The position numbers and the translations under genes are program-made. The notes below the pieces were generated by a model. The model made no database searches. It was not told where the DNA came from and saw nothing but the letters and a program-made list of their open reading frames with translations. From a virus, in the IMG/VR virus record IMGVR_UViG_3300040856_003829, positions 1 through 64,000 of that record: a stretch of DNA of 64,000 nt. One strand, written 5' to 3'. This document shows, piece by piece, positions 19,674-47,266 of this stretch; position 1 is the first letter of the stretch, and every line of letters starts with the position of its first letter.

Positions 19674-19839
19674 AATTTTTAATTATTGGTCGACTCATAT
19701 GTTTTACAAATGGAACCAAATCAGTGATTTGAGCGGCATTGTATCTGACAATAAGTCTATTTTTATGTTTATTATTTGAATCTAAAAATAAAACACCAAA
19801 TAATATAATCAACAGGGTTTGTAATATAAATTTTTTCAT
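19663..19839 (-). CDS. 58-aa membrane-anchored protein missing from the ORF track
   Basis: MKKFILQTLLIILFGVLFLDS...; TAATG-coupled to the upstream stop. Confidence 0.55.
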   Translation of the reverse strand: MKKFILQTLLIILFGVLFLDSNNKHKNRLIVRYNAAQITDLVPFVKHMSRPIIKNYEK

Positions 19840-20093
19840 TACCAGTTTTTAATAATATTAAGTACAATAAGTAAATTTGTGATGACTGCTTGTAAGATTA
19901 ATAAGGTTCGTATAAAAGCAACTTTATCACTAATCTTATTATCCTTTTCATTAGCCTTAGTACCTAAAGATTTTGCCCACAACTTCCAAAATCTTGTATA
20001 AGTGGTCCCTGCCGGATTCGAACCAGCGACCTTCTGGGTGTAAACCAGATGCTCTGAACCAACTGAGCTAAGAGACCTTTTATTTTTTTTCAT
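19839..20093 (-). CDS. Small phage membrane protein (WKLWAKSLG family); start uncertain, frame is open through tRNA-Val
   Basis: W.LWAKSLG.KA...D...D.VAFIRT plus a TM helix resembles a small protein I recall from marine T4-like phages. Confidence 0.5.
   Translation of the reverse strand: MKKNKRSLSSVGSEHLVYTQKVAGSNPAGTTYTRFWKLWAKSLGTKANEKDNKISDKVAFIRTLLILQAVITNLLIVLNIIKNW
20003..20077 (-). tRNA. tRNA-Val(TAC)
   Basis: GGTCTCT/AGGGACC acceptor, TCTGG-TTTACAC-CCAGA arm. Confidence 0.95.
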
Positions 20094-20268
20094 GCTCCAA
20101 TGTCAACAAAGAATCAATATAACGTTGATTCGATAAAAATACACTATCAGATAAAATTATTTCATCTTTAGTAAAATCTAATTGTTCACCAAGGATTTCA
20201 ATCTTAGTATCTTGATTATCACATGAGATCAAAAAAACAAAAGAACATACTGTAATAATTTTTTTCAT
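20080..20268 (-). CDS. Putative small lipoprotein
   Basis: Lipobox LIS-C. Confidence 0.55.
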   Translation of the reverse strand: MKKIITVCSFVFLISCDNQDTKIEILGEQLDFTKDEIILSDSVFLSNQRYIDSLLTLEHEKK

Positions 20269-20282
20269 TTCATAAAATTTAG

Positions 20283-20355
20283 TAACCCCGCTGGGATTCG
20301 AACCCAGGACCCTCTCATTAAAAGTGAGATGCTCTGCCAGCTGAGCTACGAGATC
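20283..20355 (-). tRNA. tRNA-Lys(TTT)
   Basis: TCTCA-CTTTTAA-TGAGA arm; acceptor GATCTCG/CGGGGTT with three G-U pairs. Confidence 0.9.
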
Positions 20356-20601
20356 AGATCCGCCTCCCTACAACACCTTACTCATATCGTAAGAATATTA
20401 TAGGGACACTTACATTCGTCCAATGTCAAGGAGTTTAGTTCTGTTCAGGGTGACTAAACGCACCCCACTATCTGACGGTAACTTACCAACATACCGACTC
20501 GTGCCGTATGTGTCTGAAATTACTCGTGAGATAGGTTTCCCATCCATGGGCGATTAGACCCTGATGGTAGTTACATGTTGACTAATCTCATGTAACAGCT
20601 T
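20356..20601 (-). ncRNA. Unassigned multi-hairpin structured RNA, about 245 nt, between tRNA-Tyr and tRNA-Lys
   Basis: No ORF of 60 aa or more; helices at 20570-20596, 20468-20534, 20433-20459 and 20365-20406; G-U pairs form only on the minus strand. Confidence 0.6.
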
Positions 20602-20602
20602 G

Positions 20603-20683
20603 TGGGGGTAGATGGACTCGAACCACCGATGTCAGAGACGGCTGATTTACAGTCAGCTGCAATAGCCACTATGCGATACCCCC
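20603..20683 (-). tRNA. tRNA-Tyr(GTA)
   Basis: GGGGGTA/TACCCCC acceptor, GCTGA-CTGTAAA-TCAGC arm, variable arm. Confidence 0.95.
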
Positions 20684-20689
20684 TAGAAA

Positions 20690-20774
20690 AGGTCAGACAA
20701 TACTGGAGACGGGCCCAGTGAACCGAATACACGTACTCGGAAGGGCCTTTTTACTCACAAGTAAAGTCTGACCT
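20690..20774 (-). ncRNA. Unassigned ~85-nt multi-stem junction RNA between tRNA-Thr and tRNA-Tyr
   Basis: 9-bp closing stem AGGTCAGAC/GTCTGACCT enclosing TTTACT/AGTAAA and GGCCC..CCGAGTA/TATTCGG..GGGCC arms. Confidence 0.55.
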
Positions 20775-20819
20775 GTTTTGGTATTGAACTTCAATACCGG
20801 CGTTTTCGAGTCGCCTATG

Positions 20820-20892
20820 AGCCACCAATAGGACTCGAACCTACGACCTGCTGATTACAAATCAGCTGCTCTACCAACTAAGCTATGGTGGC
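20820..20892 (-). tRNA. tRNA-Thr(TGT)
   Basis: GCCACCA/TGGTGGC acceptor, GCTGA-TTTGTAA-TCAGC arm. Confidence 0.95.
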
Positions 20893-20974
20893 ACACTAGT
20901 CTAAGACCTAACGTTGTGCTAATCCGGACCCATTTTAATACGATTGAGTCAACACGCTCACCTCACACGCAACT

Positions 20975-21217
20975 TTAAGATACGTTTGTAAGTCGATTTT
21001 CTAACTTATCCAGTCTTGAATCTATTGTTCTGTAAATTTCAGTGATCTCACCATCAATATTATGTCTAAATGAAGACATCTCATTATCGAAATTTGATGA
21101 ACTAAAATCAAAACTGGTTTGAAAATCTCTGAGTTCTTTCTTTAGTTTGAACACACCAACGACTGAGTATAAAAACCCAACCGATACTATACCCAAAACA
21201 AAATACAAAAATTCCAT
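20975..21217 (-). CDS. Membrane-anchored coiled-coil protein
   Basis: N-terminal TM; C-terminal YRTIDSRLDKLENRL. Confidence 0.7.
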   Translation of the reverse strand: MEFLYFVLGIVSVGFLYSVVGVFKLKKELRDFQTSFDFSSSNFDNEMSSFRHNIDGEITEIYRTIDSRLDKLENRLTNVS

Positions 21218-21242
21218 GTGTTTTAAATTTTAAGGTTTATAG

Positions 21243-21581
21243 ATGGAGAATTAGGTGAAGAGATAAGTCAGTCTCTTAAGTACGTCCAACTTTATTTTTT
21301 TCAGGTAACATACATCCGGAATACAAGAGAGTTGTTAACTCCGCATATTTCACGTTCATGTCCACTTCACAGGTGTTGGCAAACCTGATTGAAGTTCACT
21401 GAGTCAGACAGTAGACTTTTAGTGTCTCGTACAACTACATTTTTAGAATGCCCACAACAGAAAATAACGCTCGTTATCCCTGAAGCTACAATACTAAATA
21501 TGTATGCCTTATCCCCCTGTCCAAGGGATTATTCAGCAACACCCTCCCGTGCGTGATCAGCGCGGTGGGATTTACCTCCAT
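21243..21581 (-). ncRNA. Unassigned large structured RNA, about 340 nt, immediately 3' of tRNA-Ile(TAT)
   Basis: Terminal helix ATGGAG/CTCCAT; nested long-range helices GGGTG/CACCT and GGCATACAT/ATGTATGTT; several local hairpins; no ORF of 60 aa or more. Confidence 0.6.
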
Positions 21582-21584
21582 TTG

Positions 21585-21658
21585 TAGGGACGGAGGGACT
21601 TGAACCCCCGACCTTGACTATATAAGAGTCCTGCTCTAACCAACTGAGCTACATCCCC
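21585..21658 (-). tRNA. tRNA-Ile(TAT)
   Basis: GGGGATG/CGTCCCT acceptor, (G)GACT-CTTATAT-AGTC(A) arm, canonical D and T arms. Confidence 0.88.
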
Positions 21659-21713
21659 ATATTGATAACTTATTTACTTATGTAGTAAGTGCAAAACTCG
21701 AAAACCCATTACG

Positions 21714-21757
21714 TCAAAGAACTGTACAAATATAAGTCAAAATCTTTATTCTACAAA
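21714..21757 (-). promoter_or_regulatory. Bacteroidota sigma70-type promoter plus boxA-like element
   Basis: TTTG (21754-57)-N19-TATATTTG (21727-34), then AGTTCTTTGA. Confidence 0.8.
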
Positions 21758-21863
21758 AAATATGTAGAGGTTATTTCGTTACCAACGCAGCCATCATAGA
21801 TGTTACTGGATTATGGTTGGACTTCCATTTATCCGACTTCATCCCTAGTCGGTGGATGAGGTT

Positions 21864-22049
21864 TCAACCTCTCAAAATTTTGTTTTCATCATCCCATTTC
21901 TTTTTATTATTGTAGATTCTTTTTTGTACACCATCAAAGATCGATAGTAGTAACATACCAGTAATCAGAATCCCAATTACAAATGAAATGACTATGAATC
22001 CAACTTCGAAAAGACTACTGAAAAAGTCTGTTATATCAAGTAAAAACAT
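21864..22049 (-). CDS. Small single-TM protein
   Basis: Start moved to MFLLDIT (22049) to avoid the tRNA-Leu overlap. Confidence 0.55.
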   Translation of the reverse strand: MFLLDITDFFSSLFEVGFIVISFVIGILITGMLLLSIFDGVQKRIYNNKKKWDDENKILRG

Positions 22050-22063
22050 AATTTTGGTTTTAG

Positions 22064-22149
22064 TAGCCGGGGCGGGGCTCGAACCCGCACTCACCGTTCG
22101 GCGAAACAGATTTTAAGTCTGTCGTGTCTGCCAATTCCACCACCCGGCC
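22064..22149 (-). tRNA. tRNA-Leu(TAA)
   Basis: GGCCGGG acceptor, ACAGA-CTTAAAA-TCTGT arm, long variable arm. Confidence 0.95.
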
Positions 22150-22166
22150 ATACTCATATTCGTAAA

Positions 22167-22213
22167 TCAAAGAACACTCTGTAAAGATAAGACAACTTTT
22201 TTAAATCACCAAA
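22167..22213 (-). promoter_or_regulatory. Bacteroidota-type promoter plus boxA-like element
   Basis: TTTG (22210-13)-N20-TATCTTTA (22182-89), then GTTCTTTGA. Confidence 0.7.
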
Positions 22214-22224
22214 TCTTTTTTTTG

Positions 22225-22298
22225 TACACCCGATAGGATTCGAACCTATGACCGTCTGCTTAGAAGGCAGATGCTCTATCCAACTGAGCTACGGGTGC
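22225..22298 (-). tRNA. tRNA-Arg(TCT)
   Basis: GCACCCG/CGGGTGT acceptor, TCTGC-CTTCTAA-GCAGA arm. Confidence 0.95.
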
Positions 22299-22304
22299 AT
22301 GTTT

Positions 22305-22349
22305 TAAAGAACTCCAACAAAGATAAGTCAACTATTTCAAACTAACAAA
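22305..22349 (-). promoter_or_regulatory. Bacteroidota-type promoter plus boxA-like element
   Basis: TTTG (22346-49)-N20-TATCTTTG (22318-25), then AGTTCTTTAA. Confidence 0.8.
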
Positions 22350-22370
22350 TCTTTTTGTCTTTTTTTTTTG

Positions 22371-22439
22371 AGGTCAGAAGTGGATTCGAACCACTGTAAA
22401 AGGATTGCGATCCTTCACCTTCCATTCGGACACCTGACC
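22371..22439 (-). tRNA. tRNA-Cys-like gene with an aberrant 6-nt anticodon loop
   Basis: GGTCAGG/TCTGACC acceptor, U discriminator, intact T arm; anticodon arm AAGGA-TCGCAA-TCCTT. Confidence 0.7.
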
Positions 22440-22444
22440 AATAC

Positions 22445-22489
22445 TCAAAGAACGAGTACAAATATAAAACAAAAAAACCCTACTACAAA
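22445..22489 (-). promoter_or_regulatory. Bacteroidota-type promoter plus boxA-like element
   Basis: TTTG (22486-89)-N19-TATATTTG (22459-66), then GTTCTTTGA. Confidence 0.8.
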
Positions 22490-22522
22490 ACGTAACAGGG
22501 TTTTTTTAAAAAAAAAGTATGA

Positions 22523-23020
22523 TTACTGATTAACTACGTCGAATTGGTTATTATCAGCTCTTCTATTAATAGTAATAAAATAATCTGACAATTCTAAAAC
22601 ACCTGTAATTGATTCGTAAGTCCTACCATTCGTAAATCTAATCTTACTGATCGGTACAGTCTTGAATAAATTAACTTCACTTTCTCTAAGGTTGTACCAA
22701 GCGTTACCTTCACAATTAAACTTGTTCCAGGATGTTTTTGTAATCTTTTCACCGTTTTCGAAAAGAACAATCATTTCAACGTTTTCCACACATGATCCTA
22801 ATCCGACTATTTTAGCCATGATACCATCGAATACGGGATCAGGGGAGTTGTATTTCCATGCCGATTCTATTCTAAAACCAGCATTGTTTTCGATAAATAC
22901 TTGACCATCATCAGACCAATAAACTTTGTCTGACATTTCATCTACTATTTTAGTAAGTGTCTGTGAGTATGATGTTAATGCTATAAAAATACTAGCAATA
23001 ATTAGTGATAATTTTTTCAT
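22523..23020 (-). CDS. Exported hypothetical protein
   Basis: Signal peptide SYS|Q. Confidence 0.75.
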   Translation of the reverse strand: MKKLSLIIASIFIALTSYSQTLTKIVDEMSDKVYWSDDGQVFIENNAGFRIESAWKYNSPDPVFDGIMAKIVGLGSCVENVEMIVLFENGEKITKTSWNKFNCEGNAWYNLRESEVNLFKTVPISKIRFTNGRTYESITGVLELSDYFITINRRADNNQFDVVNQ

Positions 23021-43705: not shown

Positions 43706-43739
43706 AAAAAAAAGATCGACTTTTTCAAGTCGATCTTTT
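43706..43739 (-). terminator. Terminator downstream of tmRNA
   Basis: AAAAGATCGACTT-GAAA-AAGTCGATCTTTTTTTT on the minus strand. Confidence 0.85.
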
Positions 43740-43740
43740 G

Positions 43741-44126
43741 TGGAGATGCTGGGCCTCGAACCCAGGTCCTGATTGTCCCAAACAGAAAGGACTACACGTT
43801 TAGGTCATTATTGATTCTCAACAATCCGAAATAGGTGATTGAATTTTTACATCCTCCGTCACCAATAGATGTATGACTCAATTTAGGGTTTAGTCATTTC
43901 TCCACCACAACAACGGACTTCTGTTCATAGGTACATGTCCTGACCGACCCGCTGGATACGTCGCCTTAGGCTGCGTATACCTCTTCAGTACGGATCAAAC
44001 CGAGAGTCTGAAGTTTTGCGAAAGTTTCGCCATTTGTGTTTTGAAACCGTGGATTAAAGTGATAGGTAACCTCTCACTACGTGCCCTTTGTGACTGATGA
44101 CACCAGTCAAATCCATAATCATCCCC
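43741..44126 (-). ncRNA. ssrA: tmRNA
   Basis: 5' GGGGATG..GGATTTGAC; 3' GGTTCGAGGCCCAG-CATCTCCA with G3-U pair; tag frame 44031-43966 encodes (A)GETFAKLQTLGLIRTEEVYAA*. Confidence 0.93.
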
Positions 44127-45250: not shown

Positions 45251-47266
45251 TTACTTGGACTTTTTTATAAATAACTTTTCTTCTTTGTCTATATCAAGTA
45301 GATATTTTAAATTCTCTTTGATATTACCTCTAAGGACTTCTTCAGATATTAAATCTTCAATCTTTTCTTGAATTGCTCTTTTAATAGGTCTAGCCCCGAA
45401 CTTCTCATCAAAACCTATTTTTTGTATGTATGATTTAACTTCATCTGAGACCTCAACGTTGTAGTTCAAAGAATCCAATCTTTCATTCAACTTATATAAT
45501 TCAATAGATACAATCCTATTAACTTCATTTTCTTTCAGTTGGTTAAATATAATAATTTCATCTACCCTATTCAAAAACTCAGGTGTAAAGTAATTTTTAA
45601 GTTCTTTTCTTAACAAAGATTTCTTAATTTCTTCGTTATTACTCATTCTGTTTTTTGTATCAAAACCAACACCTACTCCAAAATCTTGTAATTTCTTCAC
45701 ACCTAAATTAGAAGTCATAATAATCAAACAATTCTTGAAATTAATCTTACGACCAAAACTATCAGTCAAATGACCATCATCAAGTAATTGTAATAGTAGT
45801 GAAAAGATGTCCTTATTTGCTTTTTCAATCTCGTCAAATAATACAACAGAATATGGTTTATTCTTTACCGCCTCAGTTAACTGACCTCCATCATTGTGAC
45901 CAACATATCCTGGAGGAGATCCGATCAATCTACTCATTGAGTGTTTTTCTTGATATTCAGACATATCAACTCTTATAAGACAATCTTCAGATCCAAAAAT
46001 CTCTTTAGCCAATTGTTTCGCCAAATAAGTTTTACCAATACCAGTAGAACCTAAGAATATAAATGAACCTATTGGTCTATTAGGGTCTTTGATACCAATT
46101 CTATTTCTCCTAATCGCCTTAGAAATCTTTTCAACAGCCTGTTCTTGACCAATAACCTTATTATTAAGATTTTCTTCCAAATTCAACAAACCTTTTTTGT
46201 CATCAGCGGTAAGTTTCGAAATTGGTATTTTAGTCATGTTAGATACAACATCATAAACCATCTCTTCAGTAATTGGTTTTCTAGTTGTATTTTTTTCCTC
46301 TTCGAATTCTTTCTTTTCTTGTTCGAGTTTACGTAATATTTTACGTTCTTTATCTCTTAATTCAGCAGCTTCTTCATACTTCTGACTTTTGACAACTTCA
46401 ATTTTTTGTTTTTTAATCTCTTTGGAATCGAGTTTAAGTTTCTCTATACTTTCAGGATATTTGACATTTATCTGTGCTCTTGCACCGACTTCATCTAATA
46501 TATCAATAGCCTTATCTGGAAATTCTCTATCAGTTATGTATCTGTCCGCCAAAGAAACACAAGCTTGAATAGACTCATCAGTATAAATAACTTTGTGGTG
46601 GTACTCATATTTGTCCTTCAAATTATTCAAAATCTCTAAAGTTTCTTCAGGAGTTGATCCATCAACCATAATCTTTTGAAATCTTCTTTCTAATGCACCA
46701 TCCTTTTCGATATTTTCACGATACTCATCCAAAGTTGTCGCACCGATACACTGCAATTCACCTCTAGCTAATGCAGGTTTGAATATATTTGATGCATCCA
46801 AAGAACCAGAAGTATTACCAGCACCTATGATGGTGTGAATCTCATCAATAAAAATTATAATATCATCAGCATTTTGTAATTCTTCTAAAATTACTTTTAA
46901 TCTTTCCTCAAATTGACCCCTGTATTTTGTACCAGCAACAATAGAAGTCATATCAAGAGATAATATTCTTTTTTCTGTTAGACTCTGAGGACACTCACCA
47001 TTAAGTATTTTCATCGCTAAACCTTCAACAATCGCAGTCTTACCGCATCCTGGTTCACCAATTATAATTGGATTATTCTTTTTACGTCTCGAGAGTACTT
47101 GAGCAATTCTTGTAATTTCTCTATCTCTACCAATTACGGGATCTAATTTTCCTTCTTCAGCTAACTTAATTAAGTCCCGTGAAAAGTTATCTAAAACTGG
47201 TGTATTCGAATTAGTATTACTACTTTCTTTTTCACTTTTTTCATTTGGGTCAATCGACTCTATCAT
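45251..47266 (-). CDS. clpC: ClpC-like AAA+ unfoldase lacking the N-terminal Clp domain
   Basis: [20 protein letters not shown]-type [34 protein letters not shown] and VGF loop; only about 25 aa before the first AAA domain. Confidence 0.9.

Follow-up and report, generated by a model that had tools for sequence, protein, structure and literature searches.

What occupies the 246 nt between the tRNA-Tyr and tRNA-Lys genes in the tRNA array of a large phage: a spacer, a small protein gene, a leader for the tRNA that follows, or an RNA in its own right? The locus lies in IMG/VR record IMGVR_UViG_3300040856_003829, and the window referred to throughout is the whole stretch analysed, the first 64 kb of that 96-kb record, in which the genes for a large terminase, a portal and a major head protein identify a phage. 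Because CheckV estimates the 96-kb record to be 32% complete, the phage genome is probably ~300 kb in size. A preliminary description, made from the letters of the window, had proposed that the gap is filled by a multi-domain RNA read from the minus strand and is unlikely to be a neutral spacer.

The gap and its tRNA neighbours

ARAGORN and Rfam find 12-13 tRNAs and a tmRNA in the window. Since the limits of tRNA-Tyr and tRNA-Lys were placed by both programs, the gap between them is exactly 20356-20601, filled from one tRNA to the other just as had been described.

20602-20683, minus strand: tRNA-Tyr(gta), the 5' neighbour of the gap RNA (ARAGORN; Rfam tRNA, 57.1 bits)
20356-20601, minus strand: the whole gap RNA, 246 nt (fold z -3.27; 297 bits with R1, a covariance model described below; no Rfam family at E<=10)
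20282-20355, minus strand: tRNA-Lys(ttt), the 3' neighbour of the gap RNA (ARAGORN; Rfam tRNA, 65.7 bits)

The tRNA-Tyr(gta) gene does not encode its CCA. The ORFs neighbouring the gap RNA have no PHROG or Pfam assignment, and for one of them, an 80-aa ORF that ends ~370 nt before the gap RNA, homologues were found (P0001-P0003, 71-98% identical). Four promoter-like motifs of the Bacteroidota type (TTTG...TAnnTTT) were confirmed on the minus strand (21728-57, 22183-213, 22319-49 and 22460-89), which has none between 20283 and 21700. Within the run of tRNA-Thr, tRNA-Tyr, gap RNA and tRNA-Lys, neither a promoter-like nor a terminator-like internal site was seen.

A compact fold on the minus strand

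The comparison with dinucleotide shuffles that had been proposed as a check puts the minus-strand MFE of the gap, -79.7 kcal/mol, outside the shuffled distribution (-63.7 +/- 4.9 kcal/mol; z -3.27; 0 of 200 shuffles as good), and the plus strand gives -63.9 kcal/mol, with a z of -1.70. When the window is cut into 260 non-overlapping tiles of 246 nt, the gap RNA has the second lowest energy of all (GC-adjusted z -2.75), and the only tile below it, at -90.7 kcal/mol, is its neighbour, which spans tRNA-Thr, a 135-nt block and part of tRNA-Tyr. The gap is also a GC island, with 43.9% GC vs 32.6% in the window. The elements of the fold are given below, with helix numbers from a consensus of the gap RNA and its one homologue, L012, which is introduced in the next section.

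20570-20596, minus strand: hairpin H1, an 8-bp stem unchanged in both copies (GTTACATG/CATGTAAC, 20596-20589 with 20577-20570) and an 11-nt loop (folds and consensus; helix 1)
20582-20587, minus strand: the strand contributed by the H1 loop to a 6-bp kissing pairing, GAUUAG in the window and GGUUAA in L012 (column-pair scan; helix 2, with both sides changed in two pairs)
20540-20567, minus strand: hairpin H2, stems of 5 bp and 4 bp, a bulge and an internal loop, topped by a 6-nt loop, CCATC.GGGT/GCCC...GATGG (folds and consensus; helices 3 and 4)
20552-20557, minus strand: the partner strand in the H2 loop, CUAAUC in the window and UUAACC in L012 (column-pair scan; helix 2)
20468-20534, minus strand: H3, a long bulged arm of 24 pairs (alignment and consensus; helices 5 and 6)
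20428-20466, minus strand: GGGG/CCUU clamp around hairpin H4 (GUUUAGUC / G.ACUAAAC; GTTTAGT/ACTAAAC, 20459-20433) (alignment and consensus; helices 7 and 8)
20412-20426, minus strand: hairpin H5, ACAUU/AAUGU, with the compensatory form GCAUU/AAUGC in L012 (consensus; helix 9)
20362-20409, minus strand: hairpin H6, an arm of 12+5 bp (20406-20365) with three U.G pairs (alignment and consensus; helix 10)
20356-20363, minus strand: the conserved 3' tail GCGGAUCU, 8 nt, which abuts the first base of the next tRNA (alignment)

All six of the minus-strand helices that had been listed by eye are present in the sequence. Five of them appear in the window's own MFE structure, and the sixth, GTTTAGT/ACTAAAC, is missing there and is seen in the MFE structure of L012 and in the two-sequence consensus fold. 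The statement that nearly the whole gap is paired was a fair one, with 142 of the 246 nt paired in the consensus (71 pairs) and 152 nt (76 pairs) in the window's own MFE. An alternative pairing, of UAUCYCAC with GUGGGGUG, might form at the expense of the base of the long arm; one substitution speaks in its favour.

A homologue in a distant phage

A scan of IMG/VR with the 3' half of tRNA-Tyr returned 12 contigs having similar tRNA arrays, among them IMGVR_UViG_3300012920_000072 (L012; 45.8 kb, the same contig as Ga0160423_10000198), which carries a second copy of the gap RNA. The two copies are 92% identical over the 145 nt of the RNA core, an identity that could in part reflect youth if a transfer was recent, and this core is the top-scoring nucleotide match between the window and L012, above every tRNA. 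The alignment of the homologous unit begins at H1 and runs up to the base that precedes the next tRNA (L012:12378-12611). The tRNAs common to the two phages are 83-99% identical, and their proteins are 25-46% identical, with terminases at 27%; the gap RNA is thus conserved at the level of the tRNAs between phages whose proteins share almost nothing. R1, a covariance model built from the two copies, scores 297 bits on the window and 288 bits on L012:12378-12611.

In both phages the element abuts tRNAs at both ends, and a tRNA with a Lys-type acceptor and T arm stands directly 3' of it with no spacer; the preceding tRNA is tRNA-Ile(tat) in L012 vs tRNA-Tyr in the window. The tRNA that follows the element in L012 (L012:12612-12683, plus strand; 55 bits with the Rfam tRNA model) combines its Lys-type acceptor and T arm with an anticodon arm 2 nt shorter than that of Lys tRNAs (ATACA-CTATG-TGTAT). 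ARAGORN names it Ile(tat), and from its sequence it is probably a non-decoding tRNA-like body that keeps the tRNA shape.

The alignment bears directly on the fold. The consensus consists of 71 pairs, 65 from RNAalifold and 6 in a loop-loop helix, and all 71 form in both copies, five with both sides changed, four with one side changed through G.U, and none broken. When the 3' partners are slid by 1-3 columns as a control, 37-40% of the pairs form and none is compensatory. Substitutions number 14 in the 142 paired columns, every one of them pairing-neutral on the consensus, vs 21 in the 74 unpaired columns (Fisher p = 0.0008), and none of the 48 columns with gaps is paired. Since the consensus was derived from the same alignment, the window-only MFE was also judged on L012. 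Its 76 pairs comprise 55 that are identical, five kept with a one-sided change, three kept with a two-sided change, one that is broken and 12 that lie in a deleted hairpin tip, so that eight of the nine varied pairs are kept in this non-circular test.

The larger changes follow the same rule, in that hairpin tips are swapped or enlarged and stems are left untouched, as expected for a structured RNA. L012 retains only the base of H6, where two pairs are compensatory, and a C(UUCG)G mini-hairpin stands in for the tip; the loop of its H4 (GUUUAGUC) carries a 14-nt insertion. The H3 stretch is near-invariant between both phages, with a 49-nt identical run; of its changes, one C-G to U.G is kept and one U-A to C.A is broken, at the inner end of the basal helix. 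The assignment of the RNA to the minus strand was right, because the U.G to U-A and C-G to U.G changes pair on that strand only. Taken from the two sequences, these comparisons show that selection maintains the predicted fold, the covariation being a single pairwise comparison because the family has two members. With an energy outside that of the shuffles and a fold kept in a distant phage through compensatory changes and hairpin swaps, the proposal of a multi-domain RNA rather than a neutral spacer is supported.

A co-varying pairing between two loops

A scan of every pair of columns looked for stacks that form in both copies and have substitutions within them. Three stacks with compensatory changes emerged, the base of H6, H5, and a 6-bp pairing between the loops of H1 and H2 that was absent from the preliminary list. 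In the window, GAUUAG (20587-20582) pairs with CUAAUC (20557-20552), and in L012 GGUUAA pairs with UUAACC. The four substitutions in the two loop segments all compensate one another, so that two pairs co-vary, and the pairing uses the whole 6-nt loop of H2. The two hairpins are spaced by 2 nt, and the predicted kiss would either close the 5' domain within one molecule or join separate molecules.

Searches and distribution

In the window, the interval 20356-20601 gave no Rfam 15 match on either strand at E<=10 (19700-22700 scanned), and none at the gathering threshold; the element interval of L012 gave none at E<=1. The families without a match, even below gathering, include tRNA, tmRNA, YrlA/Y RNA-like RNAs, RNase P RNA, group I introns, self-cleaving ribozymes and riboswitches. 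RNase P RNA had been suggested by the strings GGGAAA and ACAGAAC, and it was rejected, as the would-be P4 segments are not complementary and Rfam gives no match. Readings as SRP, 6S, a group I or II intron, or a T-loop were ruled out by inspection of the sequence and by Rfam. No gene for Ro60/TROVE was found on the window or L012 fragments, and a search of the window contig and L012 for antisense matches of at least 13 nt returned none, with chance 12-mers only.

Beyond L012, the element was not met in the collections searched. Among GenBank phages, a distant blastn search with the element alone gave no match, and a query with flanks matched the tRNAs only. In IMG/VR, JGI metagenomes and GTDB genomes, exact and degenerate pattern scans picked up the L012 contig and chance loci only; two of these (L124/L125) have no similarity outside a 16-mer, and two others (L300/L301) have no R1 match and no tRNA. 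Applied to 10 records that share the tRNA-Tyr 3' half, R1 was positive on L012 and negative on the other nine, and 156 Bacteroidia genomes gave no match.

Nor did R1 match any of 44 records whose terminase (TerL) is 69-91% identical to that of the window, among them two genomes with sizes of 295-297 kb and a completeness of 98-99%; the gap RNA would therefore be dispensable for this lineage. The nearest of these relatives (88-91%) are fragments, the longest of which probably falls short of the syntenic region, so the absence is shown for the more distant part of the lineage. A lack of conservation in related phages had been named as a refutation of the idea, and it is not what was seen, with one qualification. 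There is one homologue, in a distant phage, and no match in the closer relatives searched, and since the gap RNA is missing from all of those records its conservation is patchy and not lineage-wide.

Because two phages with 27% terminase identity carry the gap RNA, the searched closer relatives are without it, and the tRNAs of the two are 83-99% identical, the distribution suggests that the gap RNA moves horizontally together with tRNA genes, as part of tRNA-array modules. A further contig, IMGVR_UViG_3300012920_006450, has a terminase 89% identical to that of the window and comes from the same sample (3300012920) as L012. The two element-bearing phage lineages therefore co-occur, and an exchange of tRNA-array modules between them would be possible.

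Interpretation and comparison with known systems

Our best reading is that the gap holds a rare structured non-coding RNA, a new family in a known setting, that of the folded RNAs of phage tRNA clusters. The family is taken as new because homology tests failed against Rfam families, including ROOL and GOLLD, and against T4 rnaC and rnaD. In its full form, which on balance we consider rather probable, this reading takes the gap as a discrete, compact RNA of ~240 nt, with six helical elements and a 6-bp kiss, that is excised from a tRNA precursor by tRNA-processing enzymes and acts in trans. From its position, the gap RNA would be made in one precursor transcript with the phage tRNAs, since no Bacteroidota-type promoter-like motif lies nearer than those upstream at 21728-22489. 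Its 3' end (...GCGGAUCU) would arise by RNase P cleavage at the start of the downstream Lys-type tRNA, and the boundary between tail and tRNA-Lys is the expected site of that cut; its 5' end would come from 3' processing of the preceding CCA-less tRNA, by RNase Z. The downstream tRNA of L012, probably non-decoding yet tRNA-shaped, would fit the role of a processing handle. By analogy with the tRNA-cluster RNAs of T4 and with ROOL and GOLLD, the freed RNA probably works in trans during infection, as a particle of RNA alone or of RNA and protein.

The closest known system in context appears to be RNAC and RNAD of phage T4 (species 1 and species 2 stable RNAs, rnaC/rnaD), which derive from the tRNA region and whose roles are unknown (PMC3014915). 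They too are small structured RNAs on the tRNA strand inside a phage tRNA cluster, and like the gap RNA they abut a tRNA, rnaD beginning 1 nt after tRNA-Arg in the T4 record. The likeness lies in the gene setting, the gap RNA being so far a sequence-level prediction, and homology is lacking: R1 reaches at most 3.8 bits (E = 0.68) on NC_000866 69000-74000 with filters off. The T4 RNAs, of 139 and 119 nt, are also the last in their cluster with no tRNA after them, whereas the gap RNA has 246 nt and tRNAs on both sides.

ROOL and GOLLD are RNAs of phages and prophages, 'often near tRNA islands', with conserved kissing loops, multimeric cages and a function that is unknown, and GOLLD is often >800 nt in length (10.1101/2024.12.08.627333). 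The gap RNA is likewise encoded by a phage near a tRNA island and has a co-varying loop-loop complementarity. However, ROOL (~580 nt) and GOLLD are several-fold larger, their Rfam models give no match in 20356-20601, and their multimerisation is established, whereas that of the gap RNA would be a possibility read from complementarity.

For the proposed biogenesis there is precedent of a different kind. In polycistronic tRNA clusters, and in mammalian MALAT1/mascRNA, a downstream tRNA or tRNA-like structure lets RNase P define the 3' end of an RNA that is not a tRNA, and the L012 tRNA body with its crippled anticodon arm would fit a pure handle of this sort. These cases are unrelated to the gap RNA in sequence and organism, and for the gap RNA the cleavage is predicted from position.

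Phage tRNA islands have repeatedly been found to harbour folded RNAs of unexplained purpose, RNAC and RNAD since the 1970s-80s and ROOL and GOLLD more recently, and the gap RNA would be a further, unrelated and much smaller example. Its conservation at the tRNA level suggests either a partner conserved to the degree of the translation or tRNA-processing machinery, or else spread as a horizontal cassette. The copy in L012, in which a UUCG-capped stump replaces the long arm of H6, is a natural minimised variant; with this variant, clean boundaries and a tertiary contact that can be mutated, the gap RNA should be tractable for structural and functional work.

Alternative explanations

The element could instead work in cis, as one half of a chimera in which it stays joined to the Lys-type tRNA body (a tRNA-like 3' domain with a large 5' extension), or as a leader that times or gates maturation by RNase P. 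It is true that both copies are followed by a Lys-type tRNA body but preceded by different tRNAs (Tyr vs Ile), that the 8-nt tail beside the tRNA 5' end is conserved, and that the L012 tRNA, because its anticodon arm is shortened, seems to be kept for shape and not for decoding. We nevertheless consider a role in cis unlikely, as the tRNAs that follow the element look, from their scores with the Rfam tRNA model (65.7 and 55 bits), like ordinary RNase P substrates, no pairing between element and tRNA was found, and a 240-nt fold of six helices with a tertiary contact far exceeds the needs of known tRNA leaders. A catalytic role, as a self-cleaving or processing ribozyme that helps to cut the multi-tRNA precursor, we hold to be very improbable. 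The complex conserved fold, the tertiary contact, the near-invariant junction region and the location at processing sites could all be accommodated by a ribozyme, but no ribozyme, group I intron or RNase P model of Rfam 15 matches at E<=10, a catalytic core is not recognisable, and the flanking tRNAs already offer cleavage sites to host enzymes. A further alternative is a neutral spacer, with chance hairpins and a recent transfer, or a small protein gene, the 45-codon sense ORF at 20410-20547. With two copies only, and with sense ORFs that have the same first 32 residues in the window and L012, such a reading might be entertained, yet we give it hardly any weight. All 14 stem substitutions are pairing-neutral and five pairs are compensatory, and the GC content is 11 points above that of the genome. 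As for the ORF, three of the four substitutions in its common part are non-synonymous, its ATG lies inside the H2 stem, it has no Pfam match, and its reading frame is not conserved (45 aa in the window vs 38 aa in L012), since the 14-nt insertion shifts the frame and the C-terminal third differs. The gap interval is not protein-coding.

The kissing pairing raises the question of whether the RNA assembles with itself, through complementarity between the H1 loop of one molecule and the H2 loop of another, into head-to-tail multimers or closed assemblies comparable to the nanocages of ROOL and GOLLD. The 6-bp complementarity co-varies, an intramolecular coaxial kiss would be geometrically awkward because H1 and H2 are joined by 2 nt only, and ROOL and GOLLD, also phage RNAs near tRNA islands, do multimerise via kissing loops. 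On the other hand, this RNA has just 246 nt and matches neither ROOL nor GOLLD in Rfam, and the hairpins could lie side by side within one molecule, because the 11-nt H1 loop leaves linkers of 1 nt and 4 nt. We therefore regard self-assembly as doubtful, an idea to be held at low odds. A bolder combination would be a compact self-assembling or decoy module, a folded RNA with a tRNA-shaped handle that hops between unrelated giant phages, in which the kiss builds RNA-only assemblies (miniature ROOL/GOLLD cages) or the fold traps a host factor that acts on tRNA; this we offer as a speculation with a small chance of being right.

Further observations in the tRNA arrays

The acceptor stem of tRNA-Lys(UUU) (20282-20355, minus strand) has three wobble pairs, G1.U72, U3.G70 and U5.G68, and GATC occurs twice across the junction of the gap RNA and tRNA-Lys (GATCTGATC). 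At 22371-22439 (minus strand) Rfam calls a thirteenth tRNA, at 44.7 bits, which ARAGORN does not. The 135-nt block between tRNA-Thr and tRNA-Tyr occupies 20684-20818 (minus strand) and has no counterpart in L012 by BLAST. A ~365-nt non-coding block downstream of tRNA-Ile contains a sub-threshold Rfam match to the manA RNA motif (21401-21565, minus strand; 19.5 bits vs a gathering score of 55.2; E = 0.044). Elsewhere in the window, the phage encodes its tmRNA at 43738-44126 (minus strand; 99 bits) and a full-length FtsH-like ATP-dependent protease at 45251-47266 (minus strand; phrog_4871, 804 bits), the latter 44-54% identical to bacterial FtsH of many phyla, so that no single host lineage is indicated.

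A 16-nt motif, GCGTGTGAGGYGAGCG, is common to the window (20955-20970, minus strand), where it lies between the 80-aa ORF and tRNA-Thr, and L012 (12685-12700, plus strand), where it begins 2 nt past the tRNA that follows the element. No other copy was found in the window or in the other loci searched (299), and the sequence flanking the motif does not align between the window and L012. L012 also has a 180-nt non-coding block (L012:12684-12862, plus strand), called by neither ARAGORN nor Rfam, that ends with the T-arm-like GGGGTTCGACTCCCC and then an acceptor-like strand; this block might represent a tRNA-like RNA that carries a large insertion. Related contigs carry another conserved, GC-elevated block of ~215 nt, between tRNA-Ile and tRNA-Lys (L006:2656-2871, L008:503-1007 and L002:2744-3178, all minus strand). 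The strings they have in common include GGAGGTTGCAAGAATTGCTATG and CAAGGTAGAG, and the block probably represents a further structured RNA, also uncatalogued, in these arrays.
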